Source of the DNA: a virus
Taxonomy: Duplodnaviria; Heunggongvirae; Uroviricota; Caudoviricetes
IMG/VR virus record: IMGVR_UViG_2541047715_000001
DNA: 4,961 nt
Reading direction: 5' to 3' (one strand)
Positions 1-1,648 of the stretch are shown here, piece by piece. The number at the start of each line of letters is the position of its first letter. Positions within the stretch are counted from its first letter, which is position 1. A model generated the notes under the pieces. It was not told the DNA's origin. It was given only the letters and a program-made list of their open reading frames with translations, and did no database searches. The position numbers were made by a program, and so were the translations under genes.

Positions 1-1648
1 TTTCAAGCGTTTGTGTATCAATATACGCATCACCAAGAAAAGTTGTTGCGCTACCGTCATATTTATCAAACCGGATACGCAACCTTACCTGCAGTTCTGT
101 TTTAAAACGACATGAGGTTGTCACGTATTTATTATCGCCTGAGACATCAACTGACTTTGTTGCAGCAATTGATGCCATATTAATGGCTGAGGTTTGCCCA
201 ATCAGAGAATCGTTACAGACAAACTTTCCATAGGTAAAACCAAAACTATCCTTCCCGGTTTCGGGAACATCCATATTTGACGATCGCCCCCAACTGGCAG
301 GGTTTTCCGAATTGAGCATGTAGTTTGTTCTTTGCCCCTCAATAAGCAGGCCATCACGTTCAAATCGTGGCTCGTCAATGGCAGCCTCTGTCAGCACACC
401 AGATTTATTAATATAGGTTGCTTTCGATGCGCGTTTAAACTTTACAACCTTATCGCCAGGCATCGTTATTTCATCATCACCAATAACAATCTTTTTATAT
501 GACGGCGAAAAGCCCGTAATCATATCCAGTGAATCGTTAAACGGTATCCACACATCGGGAAGCGGCTGTAAGACATATTTATACGGCTCCGCAGCCTGGC
601 TTACGTACTCTCTGGCTGCATCTTCGCTTGCTTTAGCTGCCGTCTGGCTTGCTGCCGATGCTTTCGCTGAGTTCGCAGCCGCTGTTTCGCTTGTCTTTGC
701 ATTGGTTTCACTGGTTTTTGCTGCTTTTTGACTGTTGGCTGATGCAGTGGCAGAAGCAGCCGCCGCGCTTGCAGAACCAGCTGCAGCACTCTCGCTTTGG
801 GCTGCTGCATCCTGACTGTTTTTCGCCGCAGTTTCGCTGGCTTTGGCATTCGTTTCGCTGGTCTTCGCTGCCGTCTGGCTGGACTTTGCGTTAGTTTCAC
901 TCGTCTTCGCAGCTTTCTGGCTGTTAGCCGCAGCAGTTGCTGATCCAGCTGCTGAAGTCGCAGAACCAGCTGCCGCGCTCTCGCTTTGGGCTGCTGCAAC
1001 CTGGCTGTTTTTTGCCGCAGTTTCACTGGCTTTGGCATTCGTTTCGCTGGTTTTCGCTGCCGTCTGGCTGGACTTTGCGTTGGTTTCGCTCGTCTTTGCG
1101 GCTGTCTCGCTATTTTTCGCGTTGGTTTCTGATTTTTTGGCTGCTGACGCGGAGTTTGCCGATGCAGTCTTTGAGGTCGCTGCCGCCTGTGCACTATTAG
1201 CTGCATTCGTTTCTGAGGTTTTCGCCGCGTTCTTTGATGATGCCGCTGCAGTTTCGGATTTCTTTGCCGCCGCTGCGCTCTGAGAGGCGGCTTCGGCGTT
1301 GCGTGCCACTTCTTCCACCATTGCCTCAAAACGACGCAATGCCTCCGGCATGACATCATCTTCCGTCATGGCACCGAGAAAATCATTCAGCGTACCTGGT
1401 CTGGAGCCTTCATAGACGGTAATGGTCCCGGCATGTGAAGGCGGAAAACCTTCAACCAGCAGGGTGACGCTGTACTGGCCATACTCAACATCCATGCTGT
1501 AACGTCCGGCTTCATCCGGATTTTCAGAAGCCACCGTGTTCACCAGTACCGTGGTGCTGTTACGCTTTGCCTTCAGTTGAATAGTGCAGTTCTGTATTGG
1601 TTTTCCCGCACCATCTTTCAGCACACCTGAGATTTTTACTGCTGCCAT
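1..1648 (-). CDS. stf: Side tail fibre protein Stf, N-terminal 549 codons; 3' end truncated by the window
   Basis: ATG at 1648-1646 preceded by GGAG. I checked every minus-strand codon from 1648 to 2 by hand and found no in-frame stop. The ORF track omits it, presumably because it has no stop inside the window. Translation begins MAAVKISGVLKDGAGKPIQNCTIQLKAKRNSTTVLVNTVASENPDEAGRYSMDVEYGQYSVTLLVEGFPPSHAGTITVYEGSRPGTLNDFLGAMTEDD..., which matches my recollection of the conserved lambda-type Stf N-terminal domain. This is followed by an Ala/Ser/Thr/Lys-rich repeat shaft (SETNAK-type) and then a distinct distal domain (...EPYKYVLQPLPDVWIPFNDSLDMITGF...). Confidence 0.9.
   Translation of the reverse strand, partial: MAAVKISGVLKDGAGKPIQNCTIQLKAKRNSTTVLVNTVASENPDEAGRYSMDVEYGQYSVTLLVEGFPPSHAGTITVYEGSRPGTLNDFLGAMTEDDVMPEALRRFEAMVEEVARNAEAASQSAAAAKKSETAAASSKNAAKTSETNAANSAQAAATSKTASANSASAAKKSETNAKNSETAAKTSETNAKSSQTAAKTSETNAKASETAAKNSQVAAAQSESAAAGSATSAAGSATAAANSQKAAKTSETNAKSSQTAAKTSETNAKASETAAKNSQDAAAQSESAAAGSASAAAASATASANSQKAAKTSETNAKTSETAAANSAKASAASQTAAKASEDAAREYVSQAAEPYKYVLQPLPDVWIPFNDSLDMITGFSPSYKKIVIGDDEITMPGDKVVKFKRASKATYINKSGVLTEAAIDEPRFERDGLLIEGQRTNYMLNSENPASWGRSSNMDVPETGKDSFGFTYGKFVCNDSLIGQTSAINMASIAATKSVDVSGDNKYVTTSCRFKTELQVRLRIRFDKYDGSATTFLGDAYIDTQTLE
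704..1104 (-). repeat. In-frame tandem direct repeat inside stf, period 189 bp (63 codons), about 3 copies
   Basis: Plus 769-915 aligns with 958-1104 at offset 189 with about 13 mismatches in 147 nt (e.g. ctcgctttgg at 791-800 and 980-989; ctttggcattcgtttcgctg at 841-860 and 1030-1049). A more diverged partial copy at 704-736 aligns with 893-925 at the same offset. Encodes repeated ...AAKTSETNAKSSQTAAKTSETNAKASETAAKNSQ.AAAQSESAAAGSA... units with a shorter nested ~14-codon periodicity. Confidence 0.85.

Follow-up and report, generated by a model that had tools for sequence, protein, structure and literature searches.

A candidate lectin-like, fibre-docking module exchanged onto a lambda-type side tail fibre

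The DNA studied here (4,961 nt of IMG/VR record IMGVR_UViG_2541047715_000001, Caudoviricetes; hereafter the window) carries the side tail fibre gene stf of a lambda-type phage, and our sequence comparisons give good support to the view that the distal part of stf is an exchanged module, because it starts at a junction shared by unrelated fibre shafts, keeps a GC (guanine plus cytosine) level of its own and is followed downstream by a remnant of the chaperone gene tfa. We propose, with a probability of roughly 0.6, that this exchanged part acts, on a lambda-type side fibre, as a lectin-like glycan-binding module and as a docking node for a distal fibre. Which O-antigen or capsule types a phage can get past is determined by its side and lateral tail fibres, and the module described here appears among the commonest natural Stf ends in Escherichia coli prophages.

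The stf gene starts at position 1648 of the window on the minus strand and runs off the left edge, and the window holds its residues 1-549. This frame reproduces the peptide quoted in an earlier reading of the letters alone (the original prediction), which had described positions 1-600 as a candidate exchanged receptor-binding or enzymatic module of unrecognised type. Short alternative open reading frames (ORFs) of 58 and 56 amino acids (aa), on either strand in 1-600, are unsupported, the region lying inside a long and strongly conserved frame. The closest record comes from E. coli A0 34/86, where a lambdoid prophage at a Qin-type site beside ydfK/ydfJ is 100% identical to the window over positions 1-700 and 98.3% identical over the 4,961 nt; its stf encodes 791 aa. 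The last 242 residues of Stf, beyond residue 549, and the genes downstream of stf were taken from this record (L001) and from other loci. The module comprises 431 residues with a predicted two-domain lectin fold, and its first 189 residues (Stf 361-549) occupy positions 1..567 on the minus strand and continue past the left edge.

The proximal part of the fibre is clearly of lambda type. Residues 3-329 align with lambda orf-401, the N-terminal part of lambda Stf (59% identity, E 6e-80), and the first 120 aa or so, within the collar, are nearly identical to the lambda counterpart. The N-terminal attachment (collar) domain lies at 1259..1648 (minus strand; PF08400, E 5e-67), and the orf-401 alignment places a lambda Stf-like, Ala-rich shaft of GC 0.548 at 569..1258 (minus strand; residues about 131-360). 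From residue 361 on, direct comparison found no similarity to lambda distal orf-314 (best E 8.5), and a motif scan found no HxH motifs in the module, in agreement with the earlier remark that the distal part is unlike the Gly/His-rich tip of lambda Stf. Identity with a lambda/Rac-type distal Stf was ruled out by direct comparison with lambda orf-314 and Tfa.

The point at which the lambda similarity is lost is also the point at which other phages join in. A unit of ~431 aa starting at QPLPDVW (Stf residues 361-367; 548..568, minus strand) is fused to at least four unrelated shafts, and its copies are mostly 80-98% identical. Sorted by shaft, the hosts are Drexlerviridae or T1-like phages (tinuso), Queuovirinae (ESCO3, VogelGryff) and P2-like phages with PF12571/PF03406, and copies also occur in the T5-like phages IrisVonRoten (about 70% identical) and AKFV33 (38%). 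The rV5-like fibre LL12 gp041 carries the module at its C-terminus with 46% identity, and a motif search did not find the junction motif in this protein. Megablast matches of the non-lambdoid phages, and of several lambdoid ones, start at window positions 566-602, and these homology breakpoints mark QPLPDVW as the recombination seam between shaft and module.

A change in composition accompanies the break, and the sharp change predicted at the boundary between shaft and distal domain was indeed found: the largest GC step within stf, measured between adjoining stretches of 400 nt, falls at nt 584, and the homology junction (nt 568) is 16 nt away. Positions 1-567 have a GC of 0.427 versus 0.548 for 568-4961 (z = -5.8). 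The hand counts given at the time (about 40% for 1-120, about 65% for two segments of J and about 53% within lom) were accurate, the recount yielding 0.400, 0.650 for 3721-3780, 0.617 for 4441-4500 and 0.532 for lom. The comparisons returned no full-length match to an ordinary lambda Stf distal domain, and a GC of 40% is locally unusual, with 1-600 (0.432) the lowest among all 600-nt windows (mean 0.538, maximum 0.622). In every background examined the module has a GC of 0.40-0.44, in genomes that span 0.39 to 0.51; its median over 65 viral contigs is 0.435 versus 0.545 for the preceding fibre part. Lambdoid shafts and tail genes have a GC of 0.54-0.55, and the two genes that follow the module are again low (0.42 and 0.44). 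Third-position GC declines more gradually, from 0.678 in J to 0.560 in lom, 0.515 in the N-terminal part of stf, 0.464 in the shaft and 0.378 in the module; the GC step is real, but it is less abrupt at silent sites.

A further trace of exchange was found downstream. In the A0 34/86 record, 1.7 kb downstream of the module, 36 aa (L001 12115-12225) are 83% identical to residues 156-191 of lambda Tfa (E 3e-19); they lie ~360 nt past the low-GC genes, beyond an interposed 97-aa ORF. We read this remnant, from its alignment and position, as the scar of a replacement in which the incoming genes displaced the lambda-type fibre tip and most of tfa. Tail-fibre module swapping, which the original prediction had deduced from composition, is thus supported by the same QPLPDVW-starting unit on at least four unrelated shafts, by its constant GC and by the tfa remnant. 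The nearest well-described relative of the proximal half, Ur-lambda Stf, has a homologous collar and Ala-rich coiled coil, and its gene likewise follows J and lom; its residues 102-393 form a trimeric coiled coil, and lambda StfN forms a collar at the gpV/gpM junction (PMC12617516). The hinge, the gp37-like Gly/His-rich tip that binds OmpC and the Tfa chaperone of Ur-lambda are absent here, where the 36-aa tfa remnant alone survives. Gifsy-1 Stf, a binder of Gal II in the lipopolysaccharide (LPS) core, was considered as a model and rejected, being of the Ur-lambda type and not the module found here. As a separate observation, a pin-family recombinase gene (L001 12323-12913) stands next after the tfa remnant, and tfa pseudogene and pin together look like what remained when the cassette displaced a lambda/e14-type fibre tip, tfa and invertible segment.

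The module belongs to a family that has already been catalogued. In an hmmscan search it exceeded the cut-off of NCBIfam NF048003 (GTA_spike_fiber, phage head spike fibre domain) with 52.1 bits versus 36 (E 1.1e-13); the match spans Stf residues 435-635 and profile positions 1-181 of 182, and its part within the window lies at 1..346 (minus strand). A phmmer search of PDB sequences gave a sole match, chain 6tb9_F3, which is Rcc01080, a head spike fibre protein from the gene transfer agent of Rhodobacter capsulatus (RcGTA; E 3.8e-7; query residues 45-291 against chain residues 45-286), and phrog_1419 matches the module end to end. Pfam has no family over the module, its matches (PF08400 and a sub-threshold CarboxypepD_reg, 28.3 bits versus 32.3) both falling in the N-terminus of Stf. 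For a wider search we used P0042, a 433-aa stand-alone copy that is 97% identical to the module, as query for a HMMER scan of 1.84 billion cluster representatives; 2055 clusters were found at E <= 1e-3, and many of the listed matches cover the whole module and carry it C-terminally. By its profile matches, then, the module is a member of the phage head spike fibre domain family, now in a tail-fibre context; the feature by which head spikes attach, an N-terminus of (I/L)-G repeats, was not found, and the domain is instead fused behind a tail-fibre collar and coiled coil.

The predicted fold points in the same direction as the family. An AlphaFold 2 model of P0042, built on a 54-sequence alignment (mean predicted local distance difference test score, pLDDT, 90.7; predicted template modelling score 0.87), is all-beta, with a short N-terminal extension followed by two successive beta-sandwiches of the ConA/LamG type. 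A Foldseek search of BFVD returned many proteins of uncultured phages that have the same two-domain layout (template modelling scores of 0.6-0.7) and the label ConA-like lectin/glucanase. Non-catalytic carbohydrate-binding module (CBM) or lectin domains head the structural matches, and the model resembles non-catalytic sugar-binding beta-sandwiches such as AbnA domain 4, CBM40, the HcN domain of botulinum and tetanus toxins, pentraxins and laminin LG; identity to these is merely 7-17% and their ligand sites are not conserved, so that this is a similarity of fold and not membership of a family. A motif scan of the module found no ExDxxE (GH16-type) catalytic motif, and no enzyme family of Pfam or NCBIfam matched it. 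As modelled, the module is therefore of lectin/CBM type with no recognisable enzyme, and the 'enzymatic' alternative in the original prediction found no support.

The other half of that description, 'unrecognised type', fares no better. Beside the NF048003 and phrog_1419 matches, 1005 of 5426 complete E. coli genomes (~19%) contain at least 80% of window positions 1-700, and the module occurs in 219 phage records, including the classical phage 21 and the Orf41-type fibre of rV5; a galectin-like domain had moreover been described in one of its carriers (Humolli 2025, discussed below). The module is a typical member of a widespread family of coliphage fibre ends, already catalogued and common, not a new kind of domain. 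It is also shared with virulent phages used in therapy collections, and the isolated lambdoid phages Tritos, HannyBb, 2G7b and PhiR63_1 carry it with its neighbouring genes, which shows that this cassette works in real virions; a literature search on the module-carrying, ECOR-derived PhiR phages found no paper. A coliphage-type module was also seen in records named 'Listeria phage LM ...' (OR849447, OR848352, OR847733) and 'Campylobacter phage' C11, C15 and C13 (MG065652, MG065654 and MG065692, respectively). These copies have 45-76% aa identity and an rV5-like or lambdoid context, and the records are probably mislabelled or contaminated.

Experimental data exist for the relative Rcc01080 (PDB 6TB9 and related entries). 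Its homology to the module covers about 245 residues, including the motifs PRF(E/D)...LL(I/L)E...TN and Q.E.G...SS.I....TRA.D, and its predicted structure is beta-rich, two-lobed and lectin-like (PMC10218006), as is that of the module; the alignment ends at query residue 291, before the second sandwich, so that the established correspondence stops short of that domain. Rcc01080 is a virion appendage that binds surface polysaccharide: it mediates capsule binding, and a fluorescent fusion binds capsulated cells better (PMC10218006, PMC7296036). It differs from the module in being a 325-aa monomer placed on capsid vertices by an N-terminal (I/L)-G repeat peptide (PMC7296036), not a trimeric tail-fibre end, and as a flexible monomeric head fibre it has been resolved experimentally for residues 2-10 alone (PMC7296036, PMC10218006). 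A receptor-binding role of the module is plausible by analogy, because its fold is lectin/CBM-like and this homologous head spike fibre binds capsule (PMC10218006).

We then consider the genes to which the module is linked. Together with a translationally coupled 93-aa ORF and a 346-aa distal fibre that ends in a Peptidase_S74 intramolecular chaperone (E 4.8e-14), it forms a low-GC cassette of ~2.6 kb, which stands in the position taken in lambda by the gp37-like Stf tip and Tfa. The original prediction had raised the question of a tfa-like chaperone gene downstream; what follows the module is this 93-aa ORF, unrelated to lambda Tfa (E 37) and matched by no family in Pfam or NCBIfam, and then a second fibre. 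The ORF (L001 10428-10709) overlaps the module gene by stop and start codon in a shared ATGA, and its homologues are 88-110 aa long; hundreds of genomes label them 'hypothetical', and the BASEL phages 'tail fiber protein'. A homologue lies directly downstream of the module in 78 of the 81 loci with room for it. Among the 3 exceptions, one is a start-codon artefact of the ORF caller, and in two the module ORF ends before the end of the tblastn match, which we read as interruption.

The next gene, in 51 of 77 loci, encodes a fibre with a conserved first 20-25 residues (MATSTVIPxDIxxLK), a variable body and a Peptidase_S74 end, the lengths being 234, 340, 346, 351, 557 or 574 aa and varying even where the modules in front are at least 94% identical. 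At 24 of the 77 loci, including that of phage Lambda_2G7a, the module and the small ORF stand without a distal fibre, and the next gene encodes a 97-aa hydrophobic protein; the module itself is therefore the fibre end there, and the retention of the small ORF indicates a function linked to the module, whether as chaperone or as structural partner. The IMG/VR survey from which these counts come returned only close relatives (at least 71% identity), so that the linkage statistics hold for loci of the E. coli type, not for the distant family. A distal fibre, where there is one, probably contributes to specificity or dominates it. Lambda-based delivery particles have been retargeted by swapping the Stf end, the fusion points being R393 or S528 of lambda Stf (PMC11338833), and the natural seam at QPLPDVW together with the cassette boundaries provides a ready-made design rule for chimeric fibres.

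The same triad of genes occurs in the T5-like phage IrisVonRoten (Bas32) as gp22, gp23 and gp24. The C-terminal ~430 aa of Gp22 align end to end with Stf 361-791 (about 70% identity, same QPLPDVW start); Gp23 (92 aa), again with overlapping stop and start codons, is 38% identical to the 93-aa ORF (E 4e-25); and Gp24 starts with MVTKTVIPTDITKLKNE as compared with MATSTVIPDDIKTLKSD in the distal fibre here, both having an S74-type C-terminus. The two systems differ in the anchor, which is of the T5 Ltf type at the N-terminus in IrisVonRoten and a lambda collar here, and in the distal fibre, which in IrisVonRoten is 574 aa, T-shaped and equipped with two receptor-binding domains (RBDs; Gp12-like RBD1 and T5-like RBD2) and here is 346 aa; past the N-terminal peptide, only the S74 region of the 346-aa fibre aligns with Gp24. 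For IrisVonRoten, Humolli 2025 (PMC11990801) predicted a 'galectin-like domain' that protrudes from the proximal fibre's C-terminus as a possible extra RBD, with the distal fibre attached to the proximal fibre Gp22. This was the sole statement on coliphage copies of the module that our literature search found, and it is silent on the RcGTA family, the linkage to the 92-aa ORF and the distribution. On the name of the proximal fibre the same paper is inconsistent: its main text has Gp23, whereas the legend of its Fig 12 has Gp22. Going by locus tags, the fibre (796 aa) is bas32_0022, and bas32_0023 corresponds to the ORF of 92 aa.

Conservation along the module is uneven. In a profile built from distant homologues (<40% identical overall), the first 20 residues are 65% identical, residues 41-80 are 57-68% identical and the last 33 residues are 53-55% identical, and both sandwich interiors are variable (17-34%). 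The most conserved family motif, ASKATYINKSGVLTEAAIDEPRFERDGLLIEGQRTN (Stf residues 407-442; 323..430, minus strand), aligns with Rcc01080, and its columns are invariant or near-invariant in the 54-sequence alignment, including the invariant R428, G433, E437 and N442; the invariant polar residues of the whole alignment are R428, E437, N442, Q614, E616, S623 and R634.

Our data suggest the following model, in which glycan binding and fibre docking are the parts that we infer. The side fibre would be a trimer with the PF08400 collar as anchor and the Ala-rich coiled coil as extension, as in Ur-lambda (PMC12617516), and three lectin-like modules would protrude at the end of the coiled coil. The variable faces of the sandwiches may bind a surface glycan (O-antigen, capsule or LPS) reversibly, and a node that accepts the MATSTVIPxDIxxLK peptide of the distal fibre may be built from the 93-aa protein and the strongly conserved segments of the module (the 20 aa at its start, aa 400-440 and the 30 aa at its end). 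The assembled fibre would then offer two binding specificities, each exchangeable independently. The case for docking is that the shafts are unrelated and the peptide of the distal fibre is conserved; its docking partner must be conserved as well, and only the module and the small ORF qualify. A broader version of this idea, which we put forward tentatively and hold to be rather less likely than the model itself, is that the module and its ~93-aa partner form a standardised 'socket' for any distal fibre with the ~20-aa N-terminal plug (M-A-T-S-T-V-I-P-x-D-I-x-x-L-K) on the side or lateral fibres of lambdoid, T1-like, T5-like, Queuovirinae and P2-like phages, the module being at the same time a second glycan-binding RBD. 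If so, different phage families would share a plug-and-play connector, and the movement of receptor-binding tips between siphoviruses and myoviruses would have an explanation. The remaining interest of the system lies in this putative 'socket and plug' organisation and in the ligand of the module.

Several points weigh against the proposed model. Only 189 of the 431 module residues lie inside the window, the remainder coming from a record that is identical across the overlapping 700 nt, and the structure is a monomer model of P0042, a 97%-identical protein. The prediction for the 93-aa protein is unreliable, with a pLDDT of 61.8 and the other four models near 40 (shallow 20-sequence alignment), and the published coliphage statement, a figure legend, is itself a structure prediction. 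The total-GC step is in part compositional, because Ala (GCN) codons inflate the GC of the shaft. In addition, the invariant polar residues could, judging from the alignment, form a ligand, metal or catalytic site instead of a scaffold.

An alternative that we consider unlikely is that the module, together with the 93-aa protein, serves chiefly as a structural adaptor or branching hub that holds the distal fibre, and that recognition is left to the distal fibre and J and not to the lectin-like domains. The concentration of family-wide conservation at the ends of the module, with no conserved surface patch, is consistent with this view, as is the argument just given that the docking partner of the shared N-terminal peptide must be the module or the small ORF. 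A precedent also exists in the T5-like phage DT57C, where LtfA can serve solely as the attachment site of LtfB (PMC4728585). Against it stand the 24 of 77 loci, Lambda_2G7a among them, that retain module and small ORF though they have no distal fibre to attach, the strong diversification of both sandwich interiors, which is what would be expected of a binding surface, and the RcGTA homologue, which binds capsule with nothing attached to it (PMC10218006). The lateral fibre of DT57C is likewise a two-protein arrangement in which the proximal protein is the attachment site for a second receptor-binding fibre (PMC4728585, PMC10713586), and in both systems the arrangement has been deduced from genetics and bioinformatics. 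LtfA, however, ends in an S74 chaperone of its own (pfam13884, PMC4728585) and a T5-like tip, Stf here has no S74 match, and DT57C has no lectin-like module and no reported small linked ORF; LtfA/LtfB was ruled out as a model on the grounds that the S74 ending of LtfA reflects a different architecture.

That the module instead degrades or modifies O-antigen or capsule, as an enzyme of the ConA-like lectin/glucanase superfamily (glycanase, lyase or esterase), seems to us very improbable. The invariant acidic and polar residues E437, E616, Q614, R428 and R634 are what speaks for an active site, but they are common to the RcGTA head fibre, which has been described only as a binder (PMC10218006), and the lack of an ExDxxE motif and of enzyme-family matches in Pfam and NCBIfam also argues against catalysis. 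We dismiss as hardly credible the view that the GC change is evolutionarily meaningless, a mere passage from an Ala-rich (GCN) shaft to an ordinary globular domain in a vertically inherited gene: the gradual fall in third-position GC and the smaller step at silent sites favour it, but homology breakpoints that are independent of composition coincide with the step, the low GC persists through the next two genes and stays about constant in genomes of differing GC, and the tfa scar lies downstream, the breakpoints and the scar directly contradicting a purely compositional reading.

Some neighbouring features deserve mention. The 97-aa protein (L001 11802-12095, phrog_1443, GC 0.544) has hydrophobic N- and C-terminal segments and closes the fibre locus of lambdoid prophages both with and without a distal fibre; the four virulent-phage cassette loci whose annotation was examined (tinuso, ESCO3, AKFV33 and IrisVonRoten) lack it, and it could be a membrane moron. 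In the isolated lambdoid phage Lambda_2G7a (L007 5936-9260), the same moron site carries the manganese/iron transporter genes sitABCD as cargo, immediately behind the tail-fibre locus. The shaft of Stf contains a tandem duplication of 189 nt (63 aa; 695-925 versus 884-1114, minus strand) with copies 84% identical, and relatives of 727-728 aa are one unit shorter than the 791-aa Stf, which suggests a polymorphism of shaft length through gain or loss of repeats.

An Rfam scan of the whole window found no RNA family. Upstream of stf the window holds, as context, lom at 1713..2312 (minus strand; Ail/Lom outer-membrane protein, a 199-aa ORF annotated in A0 34/86) and, from the ORF list and the same record, the 3' part of J, the central tail fibre, at 2380..4961 (minus strand; GC 0.56-0.65), which runs off the right edge. 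The window and the A0 34/86 record differ by 83 substitutions, all of them in 701-4961, so that the fibre end is identical in both and the shaft, lom and J are slightly different.

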